Source: a phage
Strand: one strand, 5' to 3'
Assembly: GCA_019326865.1 (NCBI GenBank)
Contig: GCA_019326865.1_4101.1
DNA length: 64,000 nucleotides
The notes beneath the pieces were generated by a model. The model ran no database searches, had not been told where the DNA came from, and was given only the letters and a program-made list of their open reading frames with translations. The position numbers and the translations under genes are program-made. Shown in pieces: positions 4,810 through 62,396 of this stretch; positions within the stretch are counted from its first letter, which is position 1, and every line of letters begins with the position of its first letter.

Positions 4810-4816
4810 AAAGTAA

Positions 4817-5508: not shown

Positions 5509-5535
5509 TATTAATTTAATAGAGGATAACAATAA

Positions 5536-5859: not shown

Positions 5860-5865
5860 AAACTA

Positions 5866-5893: not shown

Positions 5894-5943
5894 AAGTTAC
5901 ATGAAGGGGAGAAATGATTCTCCCTACTAAGAGGAAAGAAAAA

Positions 5944-6156
5944 ATGCAAGGTCAACTAATCGTTCGTAAATGGTCTGATACTAATGAAAAACCGTGGGAT
6001 GTACAATACATCGGACCGGATGGGGTATCACGTTATCAGCCTGGCGTAACGCATAGTACTGAGCAATATGCCGCCGCTCATCGTGAACGCCTGTTAGAAT
6101 CTATGCAACAGGGTTTAGGTGAAAAATTCATTCAAGATCATTGGCTGAAAGATTAA
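5944..6156 (+). CDS. hypothetical protein (70 aa)
   Basis: start moved from track 5914 (ATG in hairpin loop) to ATG after SD AAGAGGAAAG. Confidence 0.55.
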   Translation: MQGQLIVRKWSDTNEKPWDVQYIGPDGVSRYQPGVTHSTEQYAAAHRERLLESMQQGLGEKFIQDHWLKD

Positions 6157-6164
6157 AAAGTACT

Positions 6165-6191
6165 TGTGTAGTATAGAAAATAAAGTATAAT
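6165..6191 (+). promoter_or_regulatory. sigma70-like promoter with 5' leader hairpin
   Basis: TTGTGT-15nt-TATAAT; GGAAGGGGAATAGTTCCCCTCC hairpin. Confidence 0.45.
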
Positions 6192-6242
6192 GTTTAATAC
6201 AGGAAGGGGAATAGTTCCCCTCCTAACAAAAAGGAAAGTAAC

Positions 6243-6416
6243 ATGATTCATGTAGAATTGTCAGTACTGAGAGATTTGTTTTATCGGATGGGTACTACTG
6301 GCGAATATCCGAAGGGTGATACTGCAAAACTTTTTGTATCTCTCGACTTATGGCAACGCGAACAATTAGTAATGTCGTGGCGTAAAGGTAAAGCAGATCG
6401 CGAGGTGAAAGCATGA
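6243..6416 (+). CDS. hypothetical protein (57 aa)
   Basis: hand-translated MIHVELSVLRDLFYRMG...; SD AAAGGAAAG. Confidence 0.4.
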   Translation: MIHVELSVLRDLFYRMGTTGEYPKGDTAKLFVSLDLWQREQLVMSWRKGKADREVKA

Positions 6417-6562
6417 AAGAATTTTTATTCGAAGTAGTTTTTATTGGTGTAAGTAGTCACCAATTGATTCGCTCAAGTGGTTACAATGTTTGCCAGGCAT
6501 GGAATAACATTAAACAAATGTACCCGAACGCTATCACATATCGCAACCCAAAACAAGTTTAA
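6413..6562 (+). CDS. hypothetical protein (49 aa)
   Basis: hand-translated MKEFLFEVVFIGVSSHQ...; ATGA-coupled to upstream ORF. Confidence 0.35.
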   Translation: MKEFLFEVVFIGVSSHQLIRSSGYNVCQAWNNIKQMYPNAITYRNPKQV

Positions 6563-6570
6563 AAATAATT

Positions 6571-6705
6571 AAAAAAAGGATTGACTTCGGTCAGTCCTTT
6601 TTGCTATTATATATTCATTGAGAGATAGCTCACTAGCCCACAGGGTGCGGGAGTGTATCTATTATATGTTGGTGGGTGTATTATCTAGTACTGAAAACTA
6701 TTTGA
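6571..6705. repeat. intergenic element R copy 2
   Basis: hairpin GGATTGAC-TTCG-GTCAGTCC; TTGACT(6581)-18-TATTAT; conserved core as in copy 1. Confidence 0.75.
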
Positions 6706-6715
6706 TAAAAAGTAC

Positions 6716-6743
6716 TTGCATTGTACTTAGAATCAAGTATAAT
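6716..6743 (+). promoter_or_regulatory. sigma70-like promoter driving an ORF-less structured leader
   Basis: TTGCAT-16nt-TATAAT; followed by about 80 nt with nested inverted repeats and no ORF before the next promoter. Confidence 0.45.
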
Positions 6744-6833
6744 GTTTTACATCAGGACAGGGAACGAAATAAGTAACTTCCCGTTAAGTAGCCCAGGAGT
6801 AAGGCATACGAAAAACTCCCCTGATAAAATAGT

Positions 6834-6862
6834 TTGACAATAGTTTTAAGTACTGATAAAAT
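6834..6862 (+). promoter_or_regulatory. sigma70-like promoter
   Basis: TTGACA-17nt-TAAAAT; cassette homologous to 269-330. Confidence 0.5.
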
Positions 6863-6894
6863 AATCACATCAACTACTGATAAGGAAACATAAA

Positions 6895-7170
6895 ATGCGG
6901 GTTCTTCTGACAGCTAACGAAATCGAGCAAGTACTTACTACTAACCTGGAACAATGGAAACGTGAAGCAGATATCCAGGCGGTTCAATTGTTAAATGAGA
7001 AGTTAACGCCGGATGATTTAAGTAAGATTGTAGATCCTCAATTCTACGAAGATATTCACGACACCGCGTTAAGCGTCGAGGATGTACTAGATAAACACTA
7101 CATTGATACTAATTTACAGGGTTACGGTCGTAAAAATTTTATTACTATTCACGACATTTACAATAATTAA
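6895..7170 (+). CDS. hypothetical protein (91 aa)
   Basis: ORF track; SD AAGGAAAC. Confidence 0.6.
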   Translation: MRVLLTANEIEQVLTTNLEQWKREADIQAVQLLNEKLTPDDLSKIVDPQFYEDIHDTALSVEDVLDKHYIDTNLQGYGRKNFITIHDIYNN

Positions 7171-7173
7171 GTA

Positions 7174-7201
7174 TTGACAAAGTATCTTAGTACTGTATAA
7201 T
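7174..7201 (+). promoter_or_regulatory. sigma70-like promoter with 5' leader hairpin
   Basis: TTGACA-16nt-TATAAT; GAGGGGAATGGTTCCCCTC hairpin; cassette repeated at 7443. Confidence 0.6.
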
Positions 7202-7256
7202 AGTTTACATCAAGTGAGGGGAATGGTTCCCCTCCTAACAAAGAGAGAAATAAAAA

Positions 7257-7439
7257 ATGGCTAAGTGCACTATCTGTAAGAAAGAAATAGTATTAGTTCC
7301 AAGTGCCCGTGAGCGTGCAGCTCGGTTCGGTGGCAAAGCGTCAGACTATACAAAAATGTTTACTACTCATGCAAATTGCCAGGTAGCAAAACGTTCACAA
7401 GAAAGCGTAGAATTAATGCGTAAACTTTCCAAAAAATAA
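7257..7439 (+). CDS. hypothetical Cys-containing protein (60 aa)
   Basis: ORF track; CTIC...H..C possible zinc ligands. Confidence 0.55.
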   Translation: MAKCTICKKEIVLVPSARERAARFGGKASDYTKMFTTHANCQVAKRSQESVELMRKLSKK

Positions 7440-7442
7440 GTA

Positions 7443-7470
7443 TTGACAAAGTATCTTAGTACTGTATAAT
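7443..7470 (+). promoter_or_regulatory. sigma70-like promoter with 5' leader hairpin
   Basis: TTGACA-16nt-TATAAT; near-identical to 7174 cassette. Confidence 0.6.
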
Positions 7471-7525
7471 AGATTACATCAAGTGAGGGGAAACGGTTCC
7501 CCTCCTAACAAAGAGAGAAATAAAA

Positions 7526-7849
7526 ATGACTATGATCCTTGCCCAGAAAGTAGAACTGAAAATTGTAACTTCCTTTGACATTAAAGTTAATCGCTGGACT
7601 GATCGGAACGGTAATACTTACCACTCTTGCTACGTGTCTGCATTGATTGGTGATCGTTGGGAAGACTTGGGACACGAAACCTTTACATACGGTTACGGTA
7701 CGCAAGGCGAATACACTGGTTTGGAGATCATTAAAGAAACCGTTATAGGTTTCAACCCGAAAGAAAAAGTTATTCACCGCATCGAAAAAGAGATTAATAA
7801 AGAAATAACAGTTCGCTACTACGATGTAAAACGTAAGAAAGACATGTAA
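7526..7849 (+). CDS. hypothetical protein (107 aa), paralog of 1165..1509
   Basis: ORF track; shared YGYG and C-terminal DVKRKKD. Confidence 0.65.
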   Translation: MTMILAQKVELKIVTSFDIKVNRWTDRNGNTYHSCYVSALIGDRWEDLGHETFTYGYGTQGEYTGLEIIKETVIGFNPKEKVIHRIEKEINKEITVRYYDVKRKKDM

Positions 7850-7871
7850 TAGAATCCATTTAAAGTACTAT

Positions 7872-7900
7872 TTGACATTACACAGATAGTACTTTATAAT
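7872..7900 (+). promoter_or_regulatory. sigma70-like promoter
   Basis: TTGACA-17nt-TATAAT. Confidence 0.55.
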
Positions 7901-7935
7901 AGACTCTAACTTGTAGTATTAACTTAACTAATAGG

Positions 7936-8340
7936 ATGTATACCATGATTACTAAATTCTACGCTACCCGTGAAGCTGCCCGTATTGTTGCACGCGAGGA
8001 AGGAGCGGCATTTAAAGACATGGGCAAAGATGCACCGAAAGGCCAACGCTGGAGCGTACAGTTCAAAGAAATCTCTGATATTGTGAATTCACCTGAACCA
8101 GTACTGACAGCAGCAGAACAGAAGAAAGCTGATGAACTGGCGGCAATTCTTAACGCTCAAGATGAATTCGTCGAGGGTGCTGATATCCAGGTTGTAGTAA
8201 ATTCGAATGCATGGACTCACGCGGATCATCTGGCTAACCTGAAGCGTCCAAGCGTATTGATTCGCAACCATAAAGAGATCCGACACGACCGCAAGGGCAA
8301 CCGTGTTACTGTATACAGTAAACGCCGCCAGGTTATCTAA
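7936..8340 (+). CDS. hypothetical protein (134 aa)
   Basis: ORF track; alternative start ATG 7945; followed by terminator. Confidence 0.6.
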   Translation: MYTMITKFYATREAARIVAREEGAAFKDMGKDAPKGQRWSVQFKEISDIVNSPEPVLTAAEQKKADELAAILNAQDEFVEGADIQVVVNSNAWTHADHLANLKRPSVLIRNHKEIRHDRKGNRVTVYSKRRQVI

Positions 8341-8362
8341 TACCTAGCAGTACTAACAACAC

Positions 8363-8388
8363 GGCGGGATCTGTTCCCGCCTTTTTTA
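8363..8388 (+). terminator. rho-independent terminator
   Basis: GGCGGGA-TCTGT-TCCCGCC followed by TTTTTT. Confidence 0.7.
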
Positions 8389-8402
8389 CAGGATAAACTA
8401 AA

Positions 8403-8657
8403 ATGATTAAGGTAAAACTATCTAAAGATAATATCTTGCGGGTACACTATAAAGCCCCTCAGAGAATCATCACAAAGGCCGTACAGCTTGCGAATGAGTT
8501 TATTAATGGTAATCTATTACCTAGGAAGTTAAGCAACGGAAAACTGCGTGTAATCGATGTAGACACTAACAACAGAATAGTAATAGAGAATACCGGAAAG
8601 ATAAACCTATATGAACACCAACAATATAATAAGAAAATAAAACTAATTAGTCGTTGA
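8403..8657 (+). CDS. hypothetical protein (84 aa)
   Basis: ORF track. Confidence 0.55.
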   Translation: MIKVKLSKDNILRVHYKAPQRIITKAVQLANEFINGNLLPRKLSNGKLRVIDVDTNNRIVIENTGKINLYEHQQYNKKIKLISR

Positions 8658-8711
8658 CAGTACTCAAATGTTTTAGTACTATATATCTATACCAACACGG
8701 AGAGAAACAAA

Positions 8712-8930
8712 ATGAAATTATCTAAAATCGAAAAGAAAACTATTGACGTAGCTATCCAACATGGTTACACCTTTCGTAATGATTTACATTTTACCAATTT
8801 TCAACAAGGGTATCGTACTATTAAAAAACTAATTGACAAAGGTTTATTAGTTAAAGTAGACAACGGCAACGGCGTTGAATATCAACCAACACAGGACGCA
8901 TTTAATTTTAAGAAATATAATATTATCTAA
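8712..8930 (+). CDS. hypothetical protein (72 aa), possible winged-helix DNA binder
   Basis: ORF track; promoter TTGACA 8654; IKKLIDKGLLVKVDNGNG wing-like segment (weak). Confidence 0.5.
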   Translation: MKLSKIEKKTIDVAIQHGYTFRNDLHFTNFQQGYRTIKKLIDKGLLVKVDNGNGVEYQPTQDAFNFKKYNII

Positions 8931-8987
8931 TTGACAGTACTCAAATGTTTTAGTACTATATCTATACCAACACAGGAAAAAAACAAA

Positions 8988-9572
8988 ATGCGTAATTATA
9001 CTAAATTCATCCGTACACTGTCAGAAATGGAAACCAACAAAGAGATCTTGACAGCTTGTCGGTTAGCTGGTCTGGAGATCATCGGTGCGGGGTCTTCCCG
9101 TATTGTATTCGCTTTAAATGATCGGTTAGTGATTAAGGTCGCGAATTGTGATGCGGGTGTAGAACAAAATGAAACAGAATGTAAAGTATGGAATTTTTTA
9201 GATTATGACCGACCTCAGTTGAAACAGTTCTTTGCTAAAGTACATATGCATTTAAGCGATCCTGATAATATGTTTATTGTTATGGATCGGTTGAGTACTG
9301 CAAGTAAAGGCAGTGTAAAGCACGTTAACGCGTGCAACGAATTAAAGTACAATATTAAACGTAATGCAATCGAACGCCAGCACCGCTTTGCTGATGCACT
9401 ACAACACGTCGATGATACATTATCAACACTAACGATCAGAGATATCAGAAAACAGAATATCGGACAGGATCGAAATGGACTGATTAAAGTACTTGATTAT
9501 GGTTTAACCCGCAATATCTGGAATCAGTACTATAAAAAGCGTGATGTAAAAGCCGTAACTATAACACGATAA
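8988..9572 (+). CDS. compact protein-kinase-like protein (194 aa)
   Basis: start moved from track TTG 8931; Gly-loop IGAGSSRIVF, VIKV lysine, catalytic-loop-like RDIRKQN, DFG-like LDYG. Confidence 0.5.
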   Translation: MRNYTKFIRTLSEMETNKEILTACRLAGLEIIGAGSSRIVFALNDRLVIKVANCDAGVEQNETECKVWNFLDYDRPQLKQFFAKVHMHLSDPDNMFIVMDRLSTASKGSVKHVNACNELKYNIKRNAIERQHRFADALQHVDDTLSTLTIRDIRKQNIGQDRNGLIKVLDYGLTRNIWNQYYKKRDVKAVTITR

Positions 9573-9580
9573 AAAAGATT

Positions 9581-9705
9581 AAAAAAGGGATTGACTCCGG
9601 TCAGTCCCTTTGCTATTATATATTCATTGAGAGATAGCTCACTAGCCCACAGGGTGCGGGAGTGTATCTATTATATAAGTATTGAGTACTGAAAACTATT
9701 TTTAA
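9581..9705. repeat. intergenic element R copy 3
   Basis: hairpin GGGATTGAC-TCCG-GTCAGTCCC; TTGACT(9591)-17-TATTAT; conserved core. Confidence 0.75.
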
Positions 9706-9713
9706 AAAGTACT

Positions 9714-9740
9714 TGCATTGTACTTAGATTCAAGTATAAT
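9714..9740 (+). promoter_or_regulatory. sigma70-like promoter with 5' leader hairpin
   Basis: TTGCAT-15nt-TATAAT; imperfect GGGGGAACGTCCC hairpin; SD AAGGAAT. Confidence 0.55.
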
Positions 9741-9787
9741 GTTTTATATCGAGAGGGGGAACGTCCCTGATAATAAGGAATAAAATC

Positions 9788-10009
9788 ATGACTACAATGA
9801 CTTGCATTTACGCTTCCAATCTTCTGAATGATGCTGTTTTTAATGTTGATTCAGAATATCAATGTTATCGGGATGAAAATAAAAAAGTTTTTGTAGTTGA
9901 TAATAATGGTTTCCATATTGAATTACAATCCGGCTTCACTGGTGTTGATGGTAAATCAGTATGGGGCGTACAGGATGATAAAGGCACATATCATTTTAAA
10001 CGTAATTAA
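9788..10009 (+). CDS. hypothetical protein (73 aa)
   Basis: ORF track; SD AAGGAAT. Confidence 0.6.
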   Translation: MTTMTCIYASNLLNDAVFNVDSEYQCYRDENKKVFVVDNNGFHIELQSGFTGVDGKSVWGVQDDKGTYHFKRN

Positions 10010-10012
10010 GTA

Positions 10013-10040
10013 TTGACAAAGTATCTTAGTACTGTATAAT
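10013..10040 (+). promoter_or_regulatory. sigma70-like promoter with double leader hairpin
   Basis: TTGACA-16nt-TATAAT; same double hairpin as at 3460-3510. Confidence 0.6.
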
Positions 10041-10124
10041 AGTTTACATCAAGGGCAACGGGAAGTTTTAAAAACTTCCCTATAGGGAGAACAGTTCTCC
10101 CCGATACTAAAAGGAAACAAAAAT

Positions 10125-10397
10125 ATGTCTAGCTACTCCGCTACTATGATCATTAAAGATATGAACGGTAATCCTACTGCTGCTGGTGGATCATTTGGAA
10201 ACATTAACTTAGATGGTCGGTTAACCATGCAATCAGCCATCAATGCAGCGAAAGAAGTTTTTAAGAATGAATGCACTGTAAGTAAGCTGGATTATATGGG
10301 ATTCGCTATCGAGAAAACTAATCGTTTTGTGAACTACAAAAATCCACTGATGATTGATACTAACCTGAAAGCTAACGAAGTGGAATACTTATTATGA
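10125..10397 (+). CDS. hypothetical protein (90 aa)
   Basis: ORF track; SD AAAGGAAAC. Confidence 0.6.
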   Translation: MSSYSATMIIKDMNGNPTAAGGSFGNINLDGRLTMQSAINAAKEVFKNECTVSKLDYMGFAIEKTNRFVNYKNPLMIDTNLKANEVEYLL

Positions 10398-10585
10398 CAG
10401 TTGAAGAAGTTAAAAAAGTACTGGCAGTTCTACGCTATCATAACCATTGCAAGGTGAAGAATGATTCTGATTATCTTGATTCATCCCTTGAGGAAGACAC
10501 ATTAAACGCAATAAGCTATATGCAAACATTATTAAAACGTATGACCGAAAAGAATAGACCGGACTATATCGGAAATAAAATTTAA
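10394..10585 (+). CDS. hypothetical protein (63 aa)
   Basis: ORF track; ATGA-coupled. Confidence 0.5.
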   Translation: MTVEEVKKVLAVLRYHNHCKVKNDSDYLDSSLEEDTLNAISYMQTLLKRMTEKNRPDYIGNKI

Positions 10586-10593
10586 AAAGTACT

Positions 10594-10620
10594 TGCATTG
10601 TAGTTAGATTAACGTATAAT
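10594..10620 (+). promoter_or_regulatory. sigma70-like promoter with 5' leader hairpin
   Basis: TTGCAT-15nt-TATAAT; GAGGGGAAATGGTTTCCCCTC hairpin. Confidence 0.55.
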
Positions 10621-10671
10621 GTTTTATATCGAGAGGGGAAATGGTTTCCCCTCAAGTCCAGGAGATACACA

Positions 10672-10935
10672 ATGAACACTATCGAAATCACTATCAATGC
10701 TCACGTATACGACAACGTAGTACTGCAAACTACTATGACCGCTAATGATACCAGTACTTTGCGGAATACTGTTATTAGTGCTGTATGTGCCGCTATCGGT
10801 GATGTCGCCCTGGAAAATGCAAAACACGTAAACGATGGTTTCACTATGTGCAAGCGTGATAACGCAAAACATATCATCGTAGAAGGTTACGGCGGTGTAG
10901 AATATAATGTTTATATGAAAAAAGTACTTGCATAA
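10672..10935 (+). CDS. hypothetical protein (87 aa)
   Basis: ORF track; SD CAGGAGA; 3' end overlaps next promoter. Confidence 0.6.
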   Translation: MNTIEITINAHVYDNVVLQTTMTANDTSTLRNTVISAVCAAIGDVALENAKHVNDGFTMCKRDNAKHIIVEGYGGVEYNVYMKKVLA

Positions 10936-10955
10936 TAACTAAAACAAAGTATAAT
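10928..10955 (+). promoter_or_regulatory. sigma70-like promoter with 5' leader hairpin
   Basis: TTGCAT-16nt-TATAAT; GGGGGAGATATCCTCCCCC hairpin. Confidence 0.55.
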
Positions 10956-11002
10956 GTTTTGCATAGGGGGAGATATCCTCCCCCACTAAAAGGAGTAATA
11001 AA

Positions 11003-11227
11003 ATGGCTAACTTTGATGAACTGATGCGGGAAGTAGCTAACCTGGCAGAAGAGAAGAAATCATTCGATTCTATCTATAACACCTCTTACCGTGATTCAGT
11101 ACTGGCATGTAACCAGGATCAAAAAGATGAACTAATCGCCACCTATTATGAAGCATGGAAGTACTACCGACAATGGGAGAAAGAAGAAAGTGAGTCTACC
11201 ATTGACGGCCTCAATAATCTAATCTAA
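11003..11227 (+). CDS. hypothetical protein (74 aa)
   Basis: ORF track; SD AAAGGAG. Confidence 0.6.
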   Translation: MANFDELMREVANLAEEKKSFDSIYNTSYRDSVLACNQDQKDELIATYYEAWKYYRQWEKEESESTIDGLNNLI

Positions 11228-11245
11228 AGTTTTATTTCAGTACTA

Positions 11246-11274
11246 TTGACATAGATTGATAGTACTGATATGAT
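11246..11274 (+). promoter_or_regulatory. sigma70-like promoter
   Basis: TTGACA-17nt-TATGAT; partial copy of the 790 cassette. Confidence 0.45.
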
Positions 11275-11302
11275 AACTTTACTATCTACAAGGGGAAACA
11301 TC

Positions 11303-11560
11303 ATGGAACAATTCACACAATATCGGGTAAATCCTCAAGCTATGGCATACGTAGAAGACCATAAAACGTTACCAGTACAAACACCAATTAAAGGCCATAT
11401 CTATCGTGCAATGTCATGGAATCCGGCCCAGTATGGCTATAACACCGTAGCCGTGGGCATGTACTGCGGCAATGGTGAATGGTTTGATCCTAACAATCCG
11501 ATTGCACTTGATAGTACTGAAAAAATGAAATGGGCCGACTACATCGAAGATATTTCATAA
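11303..11560 (+). CDS. hypothetical protein (85 aa)
   Basis: start moved from track 11270 (ATG inside -10 region) to ATG after SD AAGGGGAAA. Confidence 0.55.
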   Translation: MEQFTQYRVNPQAMAYVEDHKTLPVQTPIKGHIYRAMSWNPAQYGYNTVAVGMYCGNGEWFDPNNPIALDSTEKMKWADYIEDIS

Positions 11561-11567
11561 AAATTAT

Positions 11568-11595
11568 TTGACAGTACTAACCAGTAATGTATAAT
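11568..11595 (+). promoter_or_regulatory. sigma70-like promoter with 5' leader hairpin
   Basis: TTGACA-16nt-TATAAT; GCGGGGGAATAGTTCTCCCGC hairpin. Confidence 0.55.
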
Positions 11596-25268: not shown

Positions 25269-25755
25269 TTTTGCAATTAACATTATGAAGTTCATTCGAG
25301 CGTTGGAGGATGGGAAGCTTAGTCATAAGTACAGGAAAGAGGGTAACAATTGGTTCAGAAATGATTCCGAGTTCAGGAGTCATAACATCGTGTATAGCAA
25401 TCAGTACAGTGCTAATTACCTACAAGATGTAGTGATGTGTTTTGAATATGTATTGCAGTTCAGGGGTACAATCCAGAATGAATTAATGGATCACATGTAC
25501 ATCCGATACCTTCCAATGCATAAAGATGAAAATGCATTATTAGGTTCAATATACCAACGAGTAAGGGAAATTGAGTGCAGGGATATATTAGATACAGAAG
25601 AATCGTATTTCCAGCAATCTCTTATTACTGCACCTGATTCATTACAGGCACATAATTTGTTTAATACATTACGTCAGAACATCAGTACAGACATATTTTT
25701 GTCATTATTGGATTATGATACATTTGTCAAAGATTTAGAGGAAATAGGTTTATGA
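25240..25755 (+). CDS. family B paralog, hypothetical
   Basis: famB TEESYFQQSLITAPD; start moved from track 25207 to ATG 25240. Confidence 0.55.
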   Translation: MHQHKHHSYDFAINIMKFIRALEDGKLSHKYRKEGNNWFRNDSEFRSHNIVYSNQYSANYLQDVVMCFEYVLQFRGTIQNELMDHMYIRYLPMHKDENALLGSIYQRVREIECRDILDTEESYFQQSLITAPDSLQAHNLFNTLRQNISTDIFLSLLDYDTFVKDLEEIGL

Positions 25756-26108
25756 GTATATTTTCGGTTTATATAGTAAACGTCCACAACGATGGTAGTT
25801 TAATTGAATTTGATCTAGTTGATAACGATGATAATGCATATGGTATTAAAGTGCAGGGAGATGAAGTGCAGTTCACTACAAGAACAAATTTTGAAAATCC
25901 AGTCCAAGTTCCTAATTTCATAGAAGATGAAGCTGCACGATTCCAATACGAAACGATATACGAGAATGTACATATGCATACTGTTATGCAACAAAGTTTA
26001 GTTCAATTAGTTCCTTTGTTTAAACAAAATATATATGTACATGAATTGTCGATTAATGACGTTCGCAGTTCCGTTTTGTTCGGTTCCAGTGATACCGATG
26101 ATATGTAA
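25752..26108 (+). CDS. family B paralog, hypothetical
   Basis: famB DEAARFQYETIYEN; ATGA-coupled. Confidence 0.55.
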   Translation: MSIFSVYIVNVHNDGSLIEFDLVDNDDNAYGIKVQGDEVQFTTRTNFENPVQVPNFIEDEAARFQYETIYENVHMHTVMQQSLVQLVPLFKQNIYVHELSINDVRSSVLFGSSDTDDM

Positions 26109-26117
26109 GGAAGTGTT

Positions 26118-26666
26118 ATGAGTTTATTAGATACATTAGAAAAAGACCGAAGTGCAATTAAACGATTAAAAAAGCAAATTCAAAAGATTGTATACAACGT
26201 TGATAAGTTTGAGGTTCCTGGGAGAGTAGGTGATATTTCCCATACTGAGATCAAATCCCTTAAGTCAGATTTGTTGTTAAAAAATAAAAATGAGTTGATT
26301 TTAGTTTTGAGTTCAGATATGATGGGGGTAAGATATGGTTTTAATTCAGTATCAGTGCATCCTAAGAGTGAAGGGATATATCTATCACAGGGTTTCAATA
26401 GCAACGAGCAGAAGTGTTTTTACGATGCTGTACATGAACCTTTGAAGTTTACGAGAAGTGAAGCTCAAGCGTTATTAGAGCTATCAGACGAGAGTTTGTT
26501 TCAGTACAGTACAATGTACGACAATGACAAGCTTCGTTGTATGTACGCAGTGAAGCATTATGCACATGAGTTCTCTGGATTTGAATACCTTTTAGTTAGA
26601 ACCAATACAATGTATCTTGATATGTTAGAAGAATACATCGATAAAGTTGTTAATGAGTATCACTAA
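26118..26666 (+). CDS. family B paralog, hypothetical
   Basis: famB SDESLFQYSTMYDND. Confidence 0.6.
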   Translation: MSLLDTLEKDRSAIKRLKKQIQKIVYNVDKFEVPGRVGDISHTEIKSLKSDLLLKNKNELILVLSSDMMGVRYGFNSVSVHPKSEGIYLSQGFNSNEQKCFYDAVHEPLKFTRSEAQALLELSDESLFQYSTMYDNDKLRCMYAVKHYAHEFSGFEYLLVRTNTMYLDMLEEYIDKVVNEYH

Positions 26667-50172: not shown

Positions 50173-50202
50173 GACAAAATAGAAGTTAATGATATAATGT
50201 GA

Positions 50203-50231
50203 GGTGACAGTATATACTGTCACCTTTTTTT
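50203..50231 (+). terminator. rho-independent terminator
   Basis: GGTGACAGTATATACTGTCACC palindrome followed by TTTTTTT. Confidence 0.75.
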
Positions 50232-50849
50232 AATCCTGAAAGGTTCCTATAAGGAAATGATTAAAAGCCTAATCCACTCGAAAATGTAGAGGGTAGATGA
50301 GTAGTCCTTTCAGTACGAACAGCAGATGAAACCCGTTAGATGATGGCATAGTTTGAACCACTCACGGCAATGCGGCTGTATAAAGAACTCCAATAGGATA
50401 AAGAGAGTTCCTAGATAGACATATAAGGATCGCACCTTACCAATTATCTAAGGGAGATTTCATAAGAAATATGCGGTCGGAATTATACAATATAGTTGCG
50501 TCCAAATTTTGTGAAATCAAATACAAGTACTGGTCATATGGTATTTGTATTATGTGTCGGGATGTTTAAGACCGACGACCGTTGCTACAAGAACCGCGAT
50601 AGAGAGAAACAGAGCAACCCGCTTTCGTCTCGTAAGAGAATTCGTGATATGAACTATGTGAAGGCCACCAGCGTCAAACTTTTTTGTTCTTTCCCCTGCG
50701 GGGGGATGAAATATGCTCAAGCAAACCTCGTCAATATTAATTAAAAGACTTTATAATACTTGTAGAATTGTACATGCACCGCATGGAGAATTCTACTGAT
50801 GTTGATGTAATCAACATCACGTATATTCATTGATGTTTCCATAGGAATA

Positions 50850-51395
50850 ATGATGGCATTTATTAAAAAAGAAAAAACTATTACTTATAAAACTTTGAAT
50901 TTTGATGATTGTATTAATCAATCACAGGACGAAAATATTTTTACTGGATATGTGGTTATTAAAGAAAAAGGATGCATTTCTTATATAAAGGAATTGCAAA
51001 ATGGCATTGAAGTCACTTCAGTTAAATTACTTCCTACACAAAAACCAACAATATCAAAAGCCCAGTACGGTAATTATTTCGAGGAAAGATACAGTAATAA
51101 TTTAATAAGTGTTAAAGCTCATATTGTAAAAGGAGAACTAGAAGGAGAATATAGAAAATTCAACCCACAAGGAAAATGTGTTTGGGTTAAATACTACAAT
51201 TCAGGTGTTGATATAACATCTGAAATTATAGAGTTCTTAGGGTTGTCATGTACACCTGAAACTCTTCATGACTACAAATTTAATACTGAAGAAGAGTTTA
51301 ATCTGATGATGCGTTATGGATCACATTTTAAATTTTTATATGAATATAACGTTGACAGTAGTATTTTTGATAAAATAGTACATAACTGTCTATAA
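50850..51395 (+). CDS. hypothetical protein (181 aa), possible MORN/YwqK-like repeats
   Basis: ORF track; repeat-like GEYRKFNPQGKCVWVKYYNSG (weak). Confidence 0.5.
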   Translation: MMAFIKKEKTITYKTLNFDDCINQSQDENIFTGYVVIKEKGCISYIKELQNGIEVTSVKLLPTQKPTISKAQYGNYFEERYSNNLISVKAHIVKGELEGEYRKFNPQGKCVWVKYYNSGVDITSEIIEFLGLSCTPETLHDYKFNTEEEFNLMMRYGSHFKFLYEYNVDSSIFDKIVHNCL

Positions 51396-51411
51396 CAAAA
51401 GGATTTATATA

Positions 51412-51933
51412 ATGTCGAAGAAGGATACTTCGAATAAGCACTCAGTTCATTTCAGTACTGGAAAAGATAACTGGACAACCCCAAAAGATTTTTTTGAAGA
51501 TTTAGATGAGTTATGGGGATTTACACTTGATGCTGCTTGTGTAGATGAGACTGCATTGTGTGATAATTTTTTCACTCCAGAAGATGATTCACTGTCACAG
51601 GATTGGGGAAATAATATAGTTTGGTTGAATCCACCATATAGTGACTTAAAAACATGGTTATCTAAAGCTGTAGATGCATATAATAACGGAGCAACTGTAG
51701 TTATTCTTGTACCCTCAAGAACCGATACAATTGCTTTTCAGGATTATGCTGCTAAAATATGTGATTGTATTTGTTTTATTAAGGGAAGATTGCGATTTGG
51801 TATACCAGAAGAACCCGATAAGAAAACTGATTCAGCACCATTTCCTTCGTGTCTGATAGTTCTGGATAAGTACTTAACCACTGCTAAAATCAATTGTCTT
51901 AAATCTCTCGGATTGGTGATGAAGAATTTATGA
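51412..51933 (+). CDS. phage Dam-type DNA N6-adenine methyltransferase
   Basis: catalytic NPPY in WLNPPYSD; size and N-terminal DNWTTPKDFFEDL layout as in small phage Dam MTases (recalled, not searched). Confidence 0.65.
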   Translation: MSKKDTSNKHSVHFSTGKDNWTTPKDFFEDLDELWGFTLDAACVDETALCDNFFTPEDDSLSQDWGNNIVWLNPPYSDLKTWLSKAVDAYNNGATVVILVPSRTDTIAFQDYAAKICDCICFIKGRLRFGIPEEPDKKTDSAPFPSCLIVLDKYLTTAKINCLKSLGLVMKNL

Positions 51934-52463
51934 AAGAAACATGTATATTATCATTTATGAGATGTAACCCAGTCCACAATGGACATGGTTTAGTTTTTGA
52001 AAAGGCCAAAACATTACAAGAACAGTACAATGCTGATTTAAAAATTTATCTAAGCACTAGTACTGACAATATAAAAAACCCACTACCACCTGAACTAAAA
52101 ATGTATTATACAGAGGGATTCTATCCTTCAGTGCAAGAGAACATCTACACAGAGGACAATCTATTTGATATAATGAGAGAACTGGATGGAAAGTACTTAG
52201 ATGTTCTCTTCATATGTGGTTCTGACCGTATTGATTCTTTTCAGAAAACCCTTGACACTTACAATGGGAAGTTGTATAATTTTTGTAATATAAAAGTAAT
52301 TCAAGCAGGTATTGACCGCCAATCAAGTCGATATAGCTCAACACAAATGCGTAAGTTTGCCAAAAATGAAGATTTTGATAGTTTTCGTGAGTTTTTGCCT
52401 GGAAATGACGAGAACTTAAAAATTCAATTATTTGAAGATGTTATAAAATACATGAGGAAATAA
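51930..52463 (+). CDS. HxGH nucleotidyltransferase, NMN adenylyltransferase-like
   Basis: N-terminal RCNPVHNGH (H-x-G-H) and SSTQMRKF (S-x-T-x-x-R) as in short NMNAT/cytidylyltransferases; ATGA-coupled to methyltransferase. Confidence 0.55.
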   Translation: MKETCILSFMRCNPVHNGHGLVFEKAKTLQEQYNADLKIYLSTSTDNIKNPLPPELKMYYTEGFYPSVQENIYTEDNLFDIMRELDGKYLDVLFICGSDRIDSFQKTLDTYNGKLYNFCNIKVIQAGIDRQSSRYSSTQMRKFAKNEDFDSFREFLPGNDENLKIQLFEDVIKYMRK

Positions 52464-52465
52464 TT

Positions 52466-52759
52466 ATGTCAGTACTGTTCAAAACTAATCCAGTACTTTG
52501 GGAACAAAATGAACAATCAGGATTTCGTTCCATCCATGTTGAATACAAAGGTAATACAGTAGTTGCAATTATTGCTAACAAAACTCTAGGAAAATGGACC
52601 GCACAGGTTGTTCCTATGGGCTATTCTTATACATCTGATGAGGTTCAATTTTTAGCTGAACTTTATCGTCAAGTTCCTTTTATTATTAATGTGTTAGAAG
52701 GCAATGATACATTATCACATGAAGATGTGATTGATTTTCTTGGAAACTTACATGTGTGA
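52466..52759 (+). CDS. hypothetical protein (97 aa)
   Basis: ORF track. Confidence 0.5.
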   Translation: MSVLFKTNPVLWEQNEQSGFRSIHVEYKGNTVVAIIANKTLGKWTAQVVPMGYSYTSDEVQFLAELYRQVPFIINVLEGNDTLSHEDVIDFLGNLHV

Positions 52760-53039
52760 TGAAATAAATCTTACAGGATATTTTTTACAAGAATCTATGA
52801 TCAAATTTAGTGAACATTTCCCAGTACTGGATGGTATCGAAATGTGGCATGTCAAACCACTGTTTCACACTTTCAGTAAAGAGCACAAAATGTTATTGAC
52901 TGAAGCGAGTAAATCAAATAACATATGTGAAATCAAAATTGGTGTAAATGTCTATAAAGGGATGGTTATCTTTTTTGACAATAACAGCAACTACTTTTAT
53001 ATTGTTAAGGAGCAATACGTTGACAAATACAAATACTAA
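52752..53039 (+). CDS. hypothetical protein (95 aa)
   Basis: track ORF 52731..53039; start moved to ATG 52752 overlapping upstream stop. Confidence 0.45.
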   Translation: MCDEINLTGYFLQESMIKFSEHFPVLDGIEMWHVKPLFHTFSKEHKMLLTEASKSNNICEIKIGVNVYKGMVIFFDNNSNYFYIVKEQYVDKYKY

Positions 53040-53628
53040 TACATACTTCCGTTATCTTCGTTTAGGTCTTTCCCTTCGACCAATCCGTGGAAAGTGTGAT
53101 TCACTCGCAGACCTTGACTATGCATATGCATTACATCATGAGGGTGTACAGTATGTATTGGGTGATTATGGTGAATTTGAAGAAACAAATGACAGTACTG
53201 GAATTAATGCTGGTGTAGAAAATCTCAACAACATTGCAAACAGTTCGCGTCATGATATTGTGTTACAGATTCAAAACTTTATTGAGCAACACACTGGTAA
53301 ACGTGTTTGGTGTTATGTCGGAACTGATGCACAAATGTCTATTTCATTCGGTAATGATGACGGATATGTCGCACAGCTAATTATGGATTTTGAATCTGAA
53401 GAGAAGTTTTTAGAATTTAAAGATAAAATCATCAAATCACTCGTTGATATGGGTATCCCAGAAGATAAAATGCCAGAAGTTCAAAACATTGATGAATTTG
53501 TTTTGATTCCATCTGATGAGAAATACGATGCTATGTTTTCTGCTCTTAATATTCCAGGAGTCATTGTGGAGTACTTTGATGATGGTGATGATAGCATCTA
53601 TATCGATTTAGATGACGATGATGAATAA
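52948..53628 (+). CDS. hypothetical acidic protein, start unresolved
   Basis: track ORF with no in-frame ATG for about 130 codons; C-terminus DDGDDSIYIDLDDDDE; possible frameshift with 52752..53039. Confidence 0.4.
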   Translation: MSIKGWLSFLTITATTFILLRSNTLTNTNTNTYFRYLRLGLSLRPIRGKCDSLADLDYAYALHHEGVQYVLGDYGEFEETNDSTGINAGVENLNNIANSSRHDIVLQIQNFIEQHTGKRVWCYVGTDAQMSISFGNDDGYVAQLIMDFESEEKFLEFKDKIIKSLVDMGIPEDKMPEVQNIDEFVLIPSDEKYDAMFSALNIPGVIVEYFDDGDDSIYIDLDDDDE

Positions 53629-53633
53629 TATAT

Positions 53634-53661
53634 AGCCCGACATAAGTTCGGGCTATTTTTG
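53634..53661 (+). terminator. rho-independent terminator
   Basis: AGCCCGA-CATAAGT-TCGGGCT followed by ATTTTTG. Confidence 0.7.
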
Positions 53662-58964: not shown

Positions 58965-59228
58965 ATGAATATTCAAGATAGATTACAATTACTATACACT
59001 ATTGAACAGGCTGCTTTTGAACTTGTTAATAAAATCTCCGAAGAACTTCCCAAAGGAACTATAGTTCGTGTACGTGAGAGGGATTATGAATCTGGAGAAA
59101 TTGAAGAACTAGTACTGACCGTGAATAAAGTAACATACTATGAATCTGAGTTGGCTATCCAATGTAGATCGGAAGATGGTAAAATATACTATTATGACAC
59201 TGGTGTAGATATAGAGGTAATAAAATGA
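58965..59228 (+). CDS. hypothetical protein (87 aa)
   Basis: track ORF 58920..59228; start moved to ATG 58965 after upstream stop. Confidence 0.5.
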   Translation: MNIQDRLQLLYTIEQAAFELVNKISEELPKGTIVRVRERDYESGEIEELVLTVNKVTYYESELAIQCRSEDGKIYYYDTGVDIEVIK

Positions 59229-60367
59229 CCCTTTTGCAAATATATGAAGATTTAATGCACTTGTGCAATACAAACGATGCGTTCTTTTATGTGGATCATA
59301 AAAGTCCTGCTGGTGGAACGTATCGTGTATTCAGTTATCGTCTAGCATCATATACTGATTTCATGCAACCCAATGCATTAGAAACCCGTGGATCTATGTG
59401 GGAAATTGATGAAGAAGGTAATATGATTCGTTGTGCTGCTCGTACTATGAAAAAGTTCTTTAATGCTTACGAGAATCCTGCTACAATGTTCCCTGCTAAC
59501 ACCACATGCGATGACATTGCAGTAGTGATGCCTAAATTGGATGGTTCAGTGATCAGTACTTACCGTGACAATGATGGTGAGATTCGTTGTAAATCACATA
59601 CTGCATTGTATTCTGACCATGCGATTAACAGTACTCGACTTATTAACGAGAACCAGAATCTATATCAGTACATCGATGAAGCTGAACGTTTAGGTTACAC
59701 AGTTAATATGGAGTATACAAGCCCAGAGTACCGAATTGTATTACCGTATCAGGTAGAACAATTGTTTGTGCTGAACGTTCGTCATCGTGTAAGTGGTGAG
59801 TTGCTATGTGGTAAAGCATTACGTGATAAGTTTCCATGTCTTTCACAGTACAGCACTAATATGACAGGAAAAGATATTCATCACACTTTTCCTGTGCGAA
59901 ATTCATTCCGTGAAAGCGTTGATGAAGTTCATAAAATGCTTGACATTGAGGGTTTTGTTTGCATTTTAAAAGATGGGACAATGTGTAAAATAAAGACTGA
60001 CTGGTACAGTTCATTACATCTTACAAAAGATAGTATTATTATTGATTCTCATTTATATGAAGCTGTATTAAATGGTTCAAGTGATGATTTAAAACAATTG
60101 TTCAGTTCTGACGAATATGCTATGCAAAAGATATTAAGAATGGAACAGTTGGTTTTTTCGTGCTATAATGCATTACAAGATGAAGTAGAAAGCTTCGTCA
60201 ATGAACACAAGCACTTAGAGCGAAAGGAATTCGCATTGAAGGTTCAGACGTGCTTATCTAGTGAACTGAATCGTCAGGGCTTGGCATTTGCAATGTATAA
60301 TAATAAGAAAGTTGATTACAAAGATACACTTATCAAATACATGAAAATTATACTAAAAGATTTTTAG
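59225..60367 (+). CDS. rnlA: RNA ligase 1 (T4 RnlA-like)
   Basis: FFYVDHKSPAGGTYRVFSYRLASYTDFMQPNALETRGSMWEID aligns with the T4 Rnl1 N-terminus as recalled; nucleotidyl-lysine motif KLDGS; CILKDGTMCKIKTDWY as in T4. Confidence 0.85.
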   Translation: MTLLQIYEDLMHLCNTNDAFFYVDHKSPAGGTYRVFSYRLASYTDFMQPNALETRGSMWEIDEEGNMIRCAARTMKKFFNAYENPATMFPANTTCDDIAVVMPKLDGSVISTYRDNDGEIRCKSHTALYSDHAINSTRLINENQNLYQYIDEAERLGYTVNMEYTSPEYRIVLPYQVEQLFVLNVRHRVSGELLCGKALRDKFPCLSQYSTNMTGKDIHHTFPVRNSFRESVDEVHKMLDIEGFVCILKDGTMCKIKTDWYSSLHLTKDSIIIDSHLYEAVLNGSSDDLKQLFSSDEYAMQKILRMEQLVFSCYNALQDEVESFVNEHKHLERKEFALKVQTCLSSELNRQGLAFAMYNNKKVDYKDTLIKYMKIILKDF

Positions 60368-60397: not shown

Positions 60398-60652
60398 ATG
60401 GCTAAACCTAAGTATAAAAATGACGGTTCCCTTTCTCCAACTGAGTTCAGGAAAATACAACAAGAAATCGATGAATTACAGCACAAACGCTCAATGAAAG
60501 GTGTGAAGATAAGTAAGAAGAGAATCGAGAATACTTTCGGATGTAGTAGTACTGAATATAAGAAGAAAAGGAAACCGAAGGGTGTTAAGCCGAGAATACA
60601 TGATGTAACTCGCTATACATCAAAACGTGAAAATAAATTTGATCCACTATAA
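60398..60652 (+). CDS. hypothetical basic protein (84 aa)
   Basis: track starts GTG 60395; ATG 60398 follows SD AAGGAGAA. Confidence 0.5.
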   Translation: MAKPKYKNDGSLSPTEFRKIQQEIDELQHKRSMKGVKISKKRIENTFGCSSTEYKKKRKPKGVKPRIHDVTRYTSKRENKFDPL

Positions 60653-60661
60653 GGAGTTCAT

Positions 60662-60892
60662 ATGAAAGTTGAAGTTCAGCATAGTATTGTTCAAGATATG
60701 TCTGTAGTTAAATTTCTTTCATTAAAAGATTACTTTAGATGTATCAAGTTCCTAGAAGAATCTCATTTAAAATGGACTCCATTAAAGTACAGTTCATCCA
60801 AAGACACTGCTAGTATTCGTTGTGATGAAGCTGTACTCGTAAAAATCTCTAAAAGATTTGGGATAGGTAAAGTGAATGAGCACAGTAAATGA
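60662..60892 (+). CDS. hypothetical protein (76 aa)
   Basis: ORF track; SD AAGGAG. Confidence 0.55.
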   Translation: MKVEVQHSIVQDMSVVKFLSLKDYFRCIKFLEESHLKWTPLKYSSSKDTASIRCDEAVLVKISKRFGIGKVNEHSK

Positions 60893-61130
60893 ACTAAAAT
60901 ACTACAACAAAATTGCGGATACGTTTATTACTCATTTATATGAAGAATTCAGTAGTATCCGCAAGGAATATACAGGTAAATGTATTTTATATAGTTCTTA
61001 TCTTAGTGGAAGAATTGAACGTGCTTACATTACTAAAGTGAAGTTTTCTGATGATTATCAATTACTATTTGAATTGGATGATTGTTTAGTCATTGAAGCT
61101 GATTTAATAGTAGATGTGCTGAACAATTGA
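60876..61130 (+). CDS. hypothetical protein (84 aa)
   Basis: ORF track. Confidence 0.5.
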   Translation: MSTVNELKYYNKIADTFITHLYEEFSSIRKEYTGKCILYSSYLSGRIERAYITKVKFSDDYQLLFELDDCLVIEADLIVDVLNN

Positions 61131-61136
61131 GGACAT

Positions 61137-61451
61137 ATGAATAAAGAACTTGCATATAAGGGTATCGAAAAGCTAAAGTTCGTTGAAAAGGAACTAATAG
61201 AATCAGTTGAAACAATGGTTGAAGATTACGTTTTTGATTTTAAGAAAACATTAATTGGATGTAAAGTCAAATGCTGGGATCATACCATTAGAGAATGGTT
61301 CAGTGCTATAATTCTTGATGTTAAAGTATCTCGAACTGGTATTGGTAACTTAGTAAATGGTGAATGCTTTGTATACACTGAATACAATAACGGTACAAGA
61401 CACCTTTCAAAAGGATGGCACAATCTCGAAGATGTAGAATTCATTGAGTAA
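61137..61451 (+). CDS. hypothetical protein (104 aa)
   Basis: ORF track; SD TGAGGA. Confidence 0.55.
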   Translation: MNKELAYKGIEKLKFVEKELIESVETMVEDYVFDFKKTLIGCKVKCWDHTIREWFSAIILDVKVSRTGIGNLVNGECFVYTEYNNGTRHLSKGWHNLEDVEFIE

Positions 61452-61463
61452 CAAGGAGTAATA

Positions 61464-62396
61464 ATGCCAACTATCACCTTAACAATTGGGTTGCCTGGGT
61501 GTGGTAAAACTACATGGGCAGTGCAAGAGATTAAAAACGCCAAATCTAAGACTATCAACATCAACCGTGATGATATTCGTGAATCTATGGCGGGGTCACA
61601 TGATGCTTACAAATTCAACGATGCTAATGAGCAGTACGTAACTACTTTACAGTTCAGTGCAGCAAATTTAGCAGCAGAGAATGGTTGGAACATCATCATA
61701 TCCGATACGAACCTTAAACAACATTTCCGTGATCTCTGGAAAGTATGGGCTAAAGATAATGATTATGATTACAAAGAAAAGAACTTCTATGATGATTTTG
61801 TACCTAATGAAGACCGTGGTGCAGATGTTCATGAATTCTTTAAGATTAAAGAGTTCGTAAAACTTTGTAAGAAATATAACCGCCAGCGTGAGCGTTCAGT
61901 ACAAGATAATATCATTGACACTATGGCAGATACTTACTATTATAGTAAAGCAATGCACATTGGTTACTATGGTAATTCAAGAGAAGCCGCTGTTATCGTT
62001 GATATTGACGGAACTCTTGCTCATAAATGGGGTCGTAATCCTTACGATGAAAGTACTGTACTACAAGATACACCAGATGAAGAAGTTATTTTGTCTATTA
62101 TCGCTGAAGCAGTTTTCCATAAACGTAAGATTATTGTAATGAGTGGGCGTACTGAAGGGTGTCGTGCAGACACAGAACAGTGGCTTAAGAATTGGGGTGT
62201 TCCTTACGATGCATTGTTTATGCGAGGCATCGATGATAAACGACCCGATGATGTGGTAAAATATGAGTTGTATATGAATAACGTCGTGCATCATTACGAT
62301 GTTAAAAAAGTATACGATGACAGATCACAAGTCGTATTCATGTGGCGTAAACTACTTGGATTAAAAGTGATGCAAGTTGCAGAAGGAAATTTCTGA
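61464..62396 (+). CDS. pnk: polynucleotide 5'-kinase/3'-phosphatase (T4 Pnk-like)
   Basis: P-loop GLPGCGKTT; NINRDDIRES; HAD phosphatase motif IVDIDGTLA; C-terminus WRKLLGLKVMQVAEGNF aligns with T4 Pnk as recalled. Confidence 0.85.
   Translation: MPTITLTIGLPGCGKTTWAVQEIKNAKSKTININRDDIRESMAGSHDAYKFNDANEQYVTTLQFSAANLAAENGWNIIISDTNLKQHFRDLWKVWAKDNDYDYKEKNFYDDFVPNEDRGADVHEFFKIKEFVKLCKKYNRQRERSVQDNIIDTMADTYYYSKAMHIGYYGNSREAAVIVDIDGTLAHKWGRNPYDESTVLQDTPDEEVILSIIAEAVFHKRKIIVMSGRTEGCRADTEQWLKNWGVPYDALFMRGIDDKRPDDVVKYELYMNNVVHHYDVKKVYDDRSQVVFMWRKLLGLKVMQVAEGNF

Follow-up and report, generated by a model that had tools for sequence, protein, structure and literature searches.

A Dam-family methyltransferase gene and an adenylyltransferase-like gene as probable neighbours by descent in an Asteriusvirus gene block preceded by a structured RNA

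We analyzed a 64-kb stretch of phage DNA, hereafter the window, which nucleotide comparison assigns to an Asteriusvirus jumbo coliphage. Over window bases 50800-53000, Escherichia phage UE-S1 is 99.5% identical, and PBECO4, 121Q and about 30 other records are 92-94% identical. Two adjacent genes in this region, ORF1 and ORF2, encode a Dam-family methyltransferase and a small nucleotidyltransferase (NTase) and correspond to the UE-S1 coding sequences UES1_370 and UES1_371, the latter being gp147 in PBECO4. Neither gene is new: dozens of Asteriusvirus genomes carry their annotation, and in UE-S1, PBECO4, 121Q and the roughly 30 other records they are named DNA N-6-adenine methyltransferase and "putative cytitidyltransferase". 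The latter term, in its GenBank spelling, had no occurrence in the literature that we searched, and the Asteriusvirus genome papers do not discuss the NTase gene. The features of the locus are summarized in Table 1.

Table 1. Features of the locus, in window coordinates.
Feature	Position	Strand	Family, evidence or remark
Terminator-like hairpin and T-run ending the preceding gene, left boundary	50201..50226	+	
Conserved multi-copy structured RNA, ~500 nt, directly upstream of the unit	50258..50762	+	BLAST, covariation
Promoter-like site TCGTCA-18-TATAAT upstream of the unit	50728..50757	+	
First gene of the unit, 181 aa	50850..51395	+	phrog_16210; syntenic in four distant relatives
Dam-family N6-adenine DNA methyltransferase gene (ORF1), 173 aa, ATG start	51412..51933	+	PF05869, phrog_111, UES1_370
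NPPY catalytic motif IV of Dam	51628..51639	+	residues 73-76 of the translation
ATGA start/stop overlap of the Dam and NTase genes	51930..51933	+	junction sequence
Stand-alone HIGH-signature nucleotidyltransferase gene (ORF2), 177 aa, ATG start	51930..52463	+	phrog_3041, phrog_395, UES1_371
HxGH (HNGH) nucleotide-binding motif of ORF2	51975..51986	+	residues 16-19
Perfect sigma-70 consensus TTGACA-17-TATAAT within the NTase gene	52252..52280	+	
SSTQMR (ISxT/SxTxxR-type) C-terminal phosphate-binding motif of ORF2	52335..52352	+	residues 136-141
Three genes downstream of the NTase gene, same unit	52466-52759, 52752-53039, 53020-53628	+	UE-S1 annotation
Terminator-like hairpin and T-run after the sixth gene, right boundary	53632..53656	+	

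The Dam and NTase genes are the second and third of six genes in a transcription unit spanning ~50.73-53.66 kb, with terminator-like hairpins at its bounds. A promoter-like site lies upstream, and a conserved CTCGTCA box follows each copy of the structured RNA element that precedes the unit. Residues 73-162 of the first gene product share homology with the C-terminus of a Vibrio phage 2.275.O product whose gene comes after the NTase homologue; when we searched for a conserved protein partner of the NTase, this relation between the ORF upstream of Dam and the Vibrio phage neighbour was the sole link. Among the three genes downstream of the NTase, the first matches phrog_14956, and synteny with relatives holds for the first and third. 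The NTase gene itself encloses a perfect sigma-70 consensus promoter. From base composition we computed an expectation of ~0.09 such sites per strand in 64 kb, and a near-identical perfect consensus is found in the PBECO4 stretch carrying the orthologous NTase gene. If active, this predicted internal promoter would allow independent transcription of the downstream genes.

ORF1 matched Pfam family PF05869 with an E-value of 7e-32 (110.9 bits against a gathering cut-off of 28.1, profile positions 7-149 of 169) and phrog_111, labelled 'DNA methyltransferase', at 3e-57. The preliminary description of this DNA, made from the sequence alone, had recognized a Dam-like NPPY N6-adenine methyltransferase, and both the Pfam match and the NPPY motif bear this out. 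The score against TIGR01712 was 91.6 bits, slightly below the equivalog cut-off of 97.05; ORF1 remains a member of PF05869 at the family level, and equivalog-level functional equivalence is not certified by this score. The authors of the UE-S1 genome paper counted Dam as one of two methyltransferases of that phage (PMC12805682). ORF1 encodes an orphan, SAM-dependent N6-adenine methyltransferase of the Dam family; by analogy with that family, it would methylate phage DNA and thereby blunt host restriction.

The second gene encodes a single-domain Rossmann-type NTase of the HIGH superfamily, belonging to a large phage-specific family. An HxGH motif after strand 1, a C-terminal ISxT/SxTxxR motif and a Rossmann-like fold, which characterize the superfamily, are all present in ORF2, in line with the earlier recognition of an HxGH nucleotidyltransferase from HNGH; SSTQMR supplies the second motif. 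In an alignment of 32 family members H19 is invariant and G18 nearly so, S136 and R141 are invariant, and the remaining invariant or near-invariant positions are R11, N13, P14, N50, L52, K57, G97, D99, R100, Y111, N112, Y116, G127 and R130. ORF2 matched phrog_3041 at 5e-56 and phrog_395 at 4e-24, both labelled "cytidyltransferase". The sole Pfam match was to PF01467 (CTP_transf_like) at 15.6 bits, below the gathering score of 21, a threshold that several ORF2 relatives do pass. ORF2 itself stayed below every curated threshold for NMN adenylyltransferases (NMNAT), phosphopantetheine adenylyltransferases (PPAT) and cytidylyltransferases.

The extent of this family became apparent from an exhaustive HMMER search with a profile built on close ORF2 relatives, which recovered 3,631 clusters at 50% identity (E<=1e-3), 2,414 of them below 1e-10; a word-based homologue search with ORF2 returned close relatives only. 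Among cultured phages the family is present in 562 records, mostly T4-like cyanophages, in which it is near-universal. The remaining hosts of the family are Rak2/GAP32-like, Pseudomonas, Vibrio and Methylophilales phages. In many members the NTase is one domain within a protein of 400-1,200 aa, and the fusion partners include DUF5824, Zeta_toxin/AAA_33, DUF6267, a Pol-beta NTase, and a RimK ATP-grasp together with a Zn-protease. Neither the window nor PBECO4 contains a counterpart of the N- and C-terminal extension domains that the cyanophage and Melnitz-type members carry. In cyanophage S-SZBM1, virion proteomics detected a protein annotated as cytidylyltransferase, whose function the authors deemed unclear (PMC9146016); presumably this protein is the homologue that was matched in our survey of the family in phage records.

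The HxGH and SxTxxR motifs and the fold indicate nucleotidyl transfer, and ORF2 would most probably transfer AMP from ATP to a phosphate-bearing acceptor. The half that would bind the acceptor has features peculiar to the family, namely the motifs KNPL, GSDR and YNGxxYNF and the lack of tryptophan, and so does not assign a substrate. Searches of the PDB with ORF2 as a single sequence or with a shallow alignment gave nothing usable, and an AlphaFold model from the shallow alignment was mediocre, with generic fold matches. The nearest structural neighbours of ORF2 are NMNATs, and the closest solved fold is an NMNAT. Weak NCBIfam matches among the 32 family members were to NadD (23/32), archaeal NMNAT (14/32), NadR-NMNAT (9), FAD synthetase (7) and CoaD (5). 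The NadD model TIGR00482 scored ORF2 at 17.4 bits against a cut-off of 112.45, and the best E-value among the 32 relatives, 9e-8 to PRK01153, is a weak one and falls outside a curated-threshold match. We compared the family with alignments of archaeal NMNAT and enterobacterial PPAT, both built from query sequences that are 98-99% identical to database entries. With hhalign, archaeal NMNAT was matched at 93% probability (E 3e-7) over only 54 N-terminal columns, from the GRxxPxHxGH motif through the NP(F/L) motif, and PPAT at 32% probability over 142 columns. In a profile search against PDB sequences, the top match was Helicobacter pylori PPAT (1.7e-5, full length), followed by NadD (1.4e-3).

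The preliminary description had likened ORF2 to NMNAT. This resemblance stands for the fold and the N-terminal motifs; it does not extend further, since the curated NMNAT thresholds were missed and the match is limited to the ATP-binding N-terminus. In the profile comparison that had been proposed as a check, hhalign favoured the NMNAT N-terminus over PPAT, and no curated threshold was passed. The ATP-binding half of ORF2 thus seems closest to NadM and archaeal-type NMNAT, and the acceptor half looks specific to the family. As a best single guess, NMN may be taken as the leading candidate acceptor, with 4'-phosphopantetheine as runner-up.

Could ORF2 then be a genuine NMN adenylyltransferase that regenerates NAD+ during infection against NAD-depleting defences, with Dam handling restriction from the same operon? 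In such a scheme NMN would come from the host or be released by NAD-consuming enzymes. Besides the structural and profile neighbours, the names assigned by JGI pipelines to two family members (NMN/NaMN adenylyltransferase) point in this direction, and so does the gene content of PBECO4, which encodes a Sir2-family protein (PF02146, 3.6e-20) adjoining a Nudix hydrolase, as well as macro-domain and WGR-domain proteins; these would give an NAD-related enzyme a rationale. On the other hand, all NMNAT models fell far short of their thresholds, PPAT scored almost equally, and ORF2 is devoid of tryptophan. In all three NMNAT classes the pyridine ring is stacked against a tryptophan; the archaeal NMNAT alignment has an invariant W81, and no tryptophan is conserved in the ORF2 family alignment, although this is a sequence-level test in which a tyrosine (Y111 or Y116) could substitute. 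The family is also near-universal in cyanomyoviruses regardless of their NAD genes. In the NARP2 pathway, Nampt supplies NMN and Nmnat co-occurs in 94% of Nampt carriers (bioRxiv 10.1101/2024.02.11.579819), and NARP3 combines PnuC with a NadR-like enzyme (PMC13464706). Among the 551 annotated genes of PBECO4 (RefSeq) we found no Nampt/NadV, PRPP synthetase, PnuC or NadR, and a Pfam scan of eight large unassigned proteins revealed no NAD-salvage domain. The absence of Nampt refers to the annotation plus a Pfam check of ten PBECO4 proteins (the eight large ones, WGR and Sir2), which is a narrower basis than a scan of the full proteome. NAD-related biology thus appears to be present in PBECO4, with no salvage pathway visible in its annotation. 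Taken together, we consider a dedicated NMNAT possible but on the unlikely side.

Two further assignments to known enzymes fared worse. As a CoaD-like PPAT, ORF2 would boost CoA synthesis; the PDB profile search gave a full-length match, but the hhalign probability against the enterobacterial PPAT alignment was low, the CoaD model TIGR01510 was matched only weakly and by only 5 of the 32 relatives, and no further CoA-pathway gene is present in the phage annotation, which makes this assignment improbable. The cytidylyltransferase of the GenBank annotation would be a TagD-like enzyme for the synthesis of cell-wall or LPS precursors. It is favoured by the GenBank and PHROG names and by the sole Pfam match, a family of the PF01467 clan. 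The predicted fold, though, is closer to the adenylyltransferases of NAD and CoA metabolism; the inherited name of the family is probably wrong, and we regard cytidylyl transfer by ORF2 as very improbable.

A different solution is that ORF2 adenylylates another acceptor, perhaps a new one, which could be a small molecule or a macromolecule, in host takeover or counter-defence, possibly after delivery with the virion; its resemblance to NMNAT and PPAT would then reflect the superfamily level only. The family has invariant residues of its own in the acceptor half (N50, R100, N112 and Y116), its domain fusions are very diverse, as in polyvalent phage proteins, and the S-SZBM1 virion protein mentioned above would fit such a role. 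That detection amounts to two peptides in one distant phage, however, no specific alternative acceptor is positively indicated, and the stand-alone protein of 177 aa has no extra domain. We hold this solution tentatively, as possible rather than probable. More broadly, ORF2 may represent, in its smallest version, a phage-specific adenylyltransferase family of very large size (at least 3,600 clusters at 50% identity, core in T4-like cyanophages) that serves either as a one-gene NAD+ top-up acting on NMN formed in the infected cell or, with a new acceptor, in host takeover or counter-defence; as a whole, we offer this proposal as a speculative and rather doubtful one.

We then considered whether the pairing of the two genes is meaningful. 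The junction reads ...AATTTATGAAAG..., with the start codon of ORF2 (ATG, 51930-51932) and the stop codon of ORF1 (TGA, 51931-51933) overlapping, so that the ATGA coupling noted previously holds as an overlap of four shared bases. One could take this overlap as a sign of a functional two-enzyme module, for example a DNA modification pathway, whose stoichiometry is enforced by translational coupling, particularly as the gene order is conserved over five jumbo-phage genera. The block of two upstream genes, Dam, NTase and the first and third downstream genes is indeed collinear in Klebsiella phage RCIP0023, Salmonella phage 7t3, Xanthomonas phage XbC2 and Erwinia phage pEa_SNUABM_49. The Dam-NTase order is kept there even as NTase identity drops to 33-39%, which is compatible with co-regulation and falls short of demonstrating it. 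Yet the flanking genes are equally conserved: because the whole block is collinear, the adjacency of Dam and NTase is conserved no better than its surroundings. The junction also varies among orthologous pairs, from a 4-nt or 8-nt overlap to gaps of 18 nt (XbC2) and 39 nt (pEa_SNUABM_49), such that the start/stop overlap is kept here and in two relatives and lost in two others. Overlaps are common locally as well; within 26 kb of annotated UE-S1 sequence surrounding the pair they occur at 24 of 55 junctions, with the identical 4-nt type at 8 of 55. Outside the clade the pairing disappears. None of 80 IMG/VR loci (0/80) had Dam within 4 kb of the NTase homologue, whose neighbours there were a DnaB-like helicase, a 2OG-Fe(II) oxygenase and DUF7207, typical of cyanomyoviruses, and three phages of other lineages (Pseudomonas phage Deifobo, Vibrio phage 2.275.O and Methylophilales phage Melnitz) likewise had no Dam next to the homologue. 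With no Dam next to the NTase in these 83 loci, we give hardly any credence to a coupled module.

We are instead fairly confident that these are two genuine and functionally independent genes of the six-gene Asteriusvirus unit, syntenic neighbours by descent, with ORF2 being adenylyltransferase-like. The ATGA overlap would represent ordinary tight packing of the gene block, and the pairing would stem from shared descent of a syntenic block rather than from a module for anti-restriction and NAD salvage. The latter combination, put forward in the preliminary description, is not supported in view of the synteny of the whole block, the variable junction and the loci without Dam; its alternative, that the enzymes are unrelated neighbours, is the better reading in light of the same synteny and junction variation and of the frequent local overlaps.

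Just upstream of the unit we found a gene-free stretch of 677 nt, and the same gap is present in all relatives. Within it, window positions ~50260-50745 share 70-75% nucleotide identity by BLAST with phages whose flanking proteins share only 30-45%. PBECO4 contains three further copies of this element elsewhere, all within annotated gene gaps, and across the phage collection it occurs at 275 places in 62 records, with 4-5 copies per genome. The phages that bear it are all jumbo phages of the Rak2/GAP32/121Q/CBB/BF/XbC2 type. Consistent with this, a pattern scan of IMG/VR located it on viral contigs that were 23-371 kb in length, the majority falling at 350-370 kb.

From an alignment of 28 non-redundant copies, RNAalifold predicted 64 base pairs, with compensatory changes in 35. 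Three invariant long-range pairs were set aside, and over the other 61 of the 64 pairs the proportion of paired cells was 95.6%, compared with 36-49% in slid-partner controls and 79.9% after column shuffling (0/500 shuffles reached the observed value). The covariation score was 0.47 versus at most 0.117 in slid controls. The RNA can be placed on the + strand because of invariant G-U pairs. No Rfam family matched it, even at E 10, and no tRNA or tmRNA was found in the element. Most paralogues end in an intrinsic terminator, and the copies at the Dam/NTase locus lack one; at this locus transcription may consequently continue from the RNA into the Dam operon. In PBECO4, the genes that lie behind the four copies have no mutual homology, and no regulated gene is obviously shared among them.

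Three copies were also found in bacterial assemblies, each edging an island of 31-38% GC in a chromosome of ~57% GC. The copy in Serratia fonticola GTA-SR07 is next to tilS and has a large serine recombinase and two ParB/RepB genes as neighbours; that of Serratia sp. 2723 adjoins a serine recombinase; and that of an Enterobacteriaceae MAG adjoins a CI-like repressor and thiM. We see in this element a strong candidate for a large structured phage RNA of a new class. Candidate roles include an independent non-coding RNA, a leader or regulatory element, and an RNA of primer or origin type that satellite-like islands exploit.

As a module of Dam and NMNAT the locus is of little import, and nothing links both genes functionally. 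What is new here is that the name "cytidyltransferase" is probably wrong and that the NTase family is large. Given its abundance, with hundreds of cultured phages and thousands of metagenomic clusters, a substrate assignment would supply an annotation for a gene that is core in cyanophages. The upstream RNA, common to phages and chromosomal islands, is a more promising lead than the Dam/NTase pair.

Compared with known systems, ORF1 resembles the small orphan phage methyltransferases of PF05869 and TIGR01712 in its near full-length match, NPPY motif, size and phage origin, and differs in lying below the equivalog cut-off of the latter; it is a regular member of these adenine methyltransferases. 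ORF2 is less easily placed. Its identity to NadM or archaeal-type NMNAT (PDB 2qjt, 1f9a) is only 13-16%, the acceptor-binding half of those enzymes cannot be aligned to it by sequence, and it has neither their tryptophan, nor a Nudix fusion, nor a Nampt partner. The RGLR and DFEYE motifs of CoaD/PPAT are replaced in ORF2 by GSDR and xxFxxxL, with YNG further on. Similar to ORF2, NARP2 (Nampt plus Nmnat-Nudix of Vibrio phage KVP40) and NARP3 involve phage-encoded adenylyltransferases of the HIGH superfamily, with a role in counter-defence. Unlike ORF2, these are two-gene pathways with an NMN-supplying partner, of which none was found in the related phage PBECO4, and their NTases are of a different family; the NadR-like structure 9x6f matches only at E 1.7e-3, over the N-terminus. 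The closest counterpart is the 'cytidyltransferase' of T4-like cyanophages (PHROG 3041 and 395), the family to which ORF2 belongs. Most of its members are 360-430 aa or larger and carry extra N- and C-terminal domains, whereas the Asteriusvirus ORF2 is the bare catalytic domain.

The gene-free gap directly upstream of the six-gene operon that carries the Dam and nucleotidyltransferase (NTase) genes holds a structured RNA-like element, which we found at 275 places across 62 jumbo-phage records, with 4–5 copies per genome. Its nucleotide identity stays at 70–75% where neighbouring proteins share 30–45% identity. Among 28 aligned copies, 95.6% of cells satisfied the pairing (vs 36–49% in slid controls), with compensatory changes at 35 pairs, and the element was assigned to the + strand because of its G-U pairs. 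A scan against Rfam returned no match at E≤10. An intrinsic terminator closes most of the paralogues and is absent from the copies at the window locus (50258-50762). Downstream of every copy lies an invariant box, AAA(T/C)C(T/C)CGTCA, followed ~17 nt further on by a TATAAT-like hexamer and immediately preceded on its 5' side by a conserved hairpin (UUCAUUCCCC-UGC-GGGGGGAUGAA). This box may be a phage-specific (middle-type) promoter element.

Copies of the element were also found in three bacterial assemblies, namely the chromosome of Serratia fonticola GTA-SR07, Serratia sp. 2723 and an Enterobacteriaceae MAG. All three sit at the edge of a 31–38% GC island in surrounding DNA of ~57% GC, and they adjoin large serine recombinases, ParB/RepB genes or a CI-like repressor. 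It is possible that these low-GC islands represent integrative elements or satellites tied to BF-like jumbo phages.

Coordinates of the features discussed (window positions unless another record is named).
Feature	Location	Strand	Context
Structured RNA-like element, ~500 nt	50258-50762	+	Gene-free gap 5' of operon
Box plus TATAAT-like hexamer	50718-50757; columns 618-640 of the alignment of RNA copies (A5)		3' of RNA element
First gene of the unit, phrog_16210	50850-51395	+	
Perfect TTGACA/TATAAT promoter	52252-52280	+	Within NTase gene, across conserved YNGxxYNF codons
Other 11 perfect promoters (starts)	3422, 4031, 4817, 5245, 5866, 7174, 7443, 7872, 10013, 11568, 35408	+	
T4 RnlA-type RNA ligase; polynucleotide kinase/3'-phosphatase	59216-60358; 61455-62387	+	UE-S1 annotation
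RNA element copies, bacterial loci	L125 3676-4149; L124 5403-5919; L123 6460-7045	-; +; +	Bacterial assemblies
Sir2-family, Nudix, macro-domain and WGR-domain genes	PBECO4 (NC_027364) 65840-67140, 25669-26145, 60563-61534		Outside window

Residues 73–162 of the phrog_16210 product share homology with the C-terminal part of NVP2275O_210 (tblastn E 1e-4; jackhmmer 5e-24). In Vibrio phage 2.275.O, the gene for NVP2275O_210 directly follows that of the NTase homologue. The NTase neighbour that recurs in a second lineage is the phrog_16210/NVP2275O_210 domain, not Dam. In metagenomic phage proteins (P0030-P0170; loci L004-L081), the NTase domain is itself fused to Zeta_toxin/AAA_33 kinases, a Pol-beta nucleotidyltransferase, DUF5824, DUF6267, RimK ATP-grasp plus Zn-protease or an intein, and to two recurrent unnamed extension domains of ~110 aa and ~315 aa. 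Further along the same gene block, 7–10 kb downstream, lies an annotated RNA repair pair, the ligase and kinase/3'-phosphatase, with coordinates transferred from the related coliphage UE-S1.

The related lytic phage PBECO4 encodes a Sir2-family protein (PF02146, 3.6e-20), its gene translationally overlapped with that of a Nudix hydrolase, together with a macro-domain and a WGR-domain protein, all of them NAD- or ADP-ribose-handling functions. No recognisable NAD salvage genes were found in its 551-gene annotation or by Pfam searches of ten proteins.

Perfect TTGACA-N16-18-TATAAT promoters number 12 on the + strand of the window and 0 on the - strand, where base composition predicts ~0.09 per strand. 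One lies within the NTase gene, and the PBECO4 stretch with the orthologue has a near-identical perfect consensus promoter. Ten others (3422–11568) are grouped within the first 12 kb, a cluster that looks like a host-RNAP early region.
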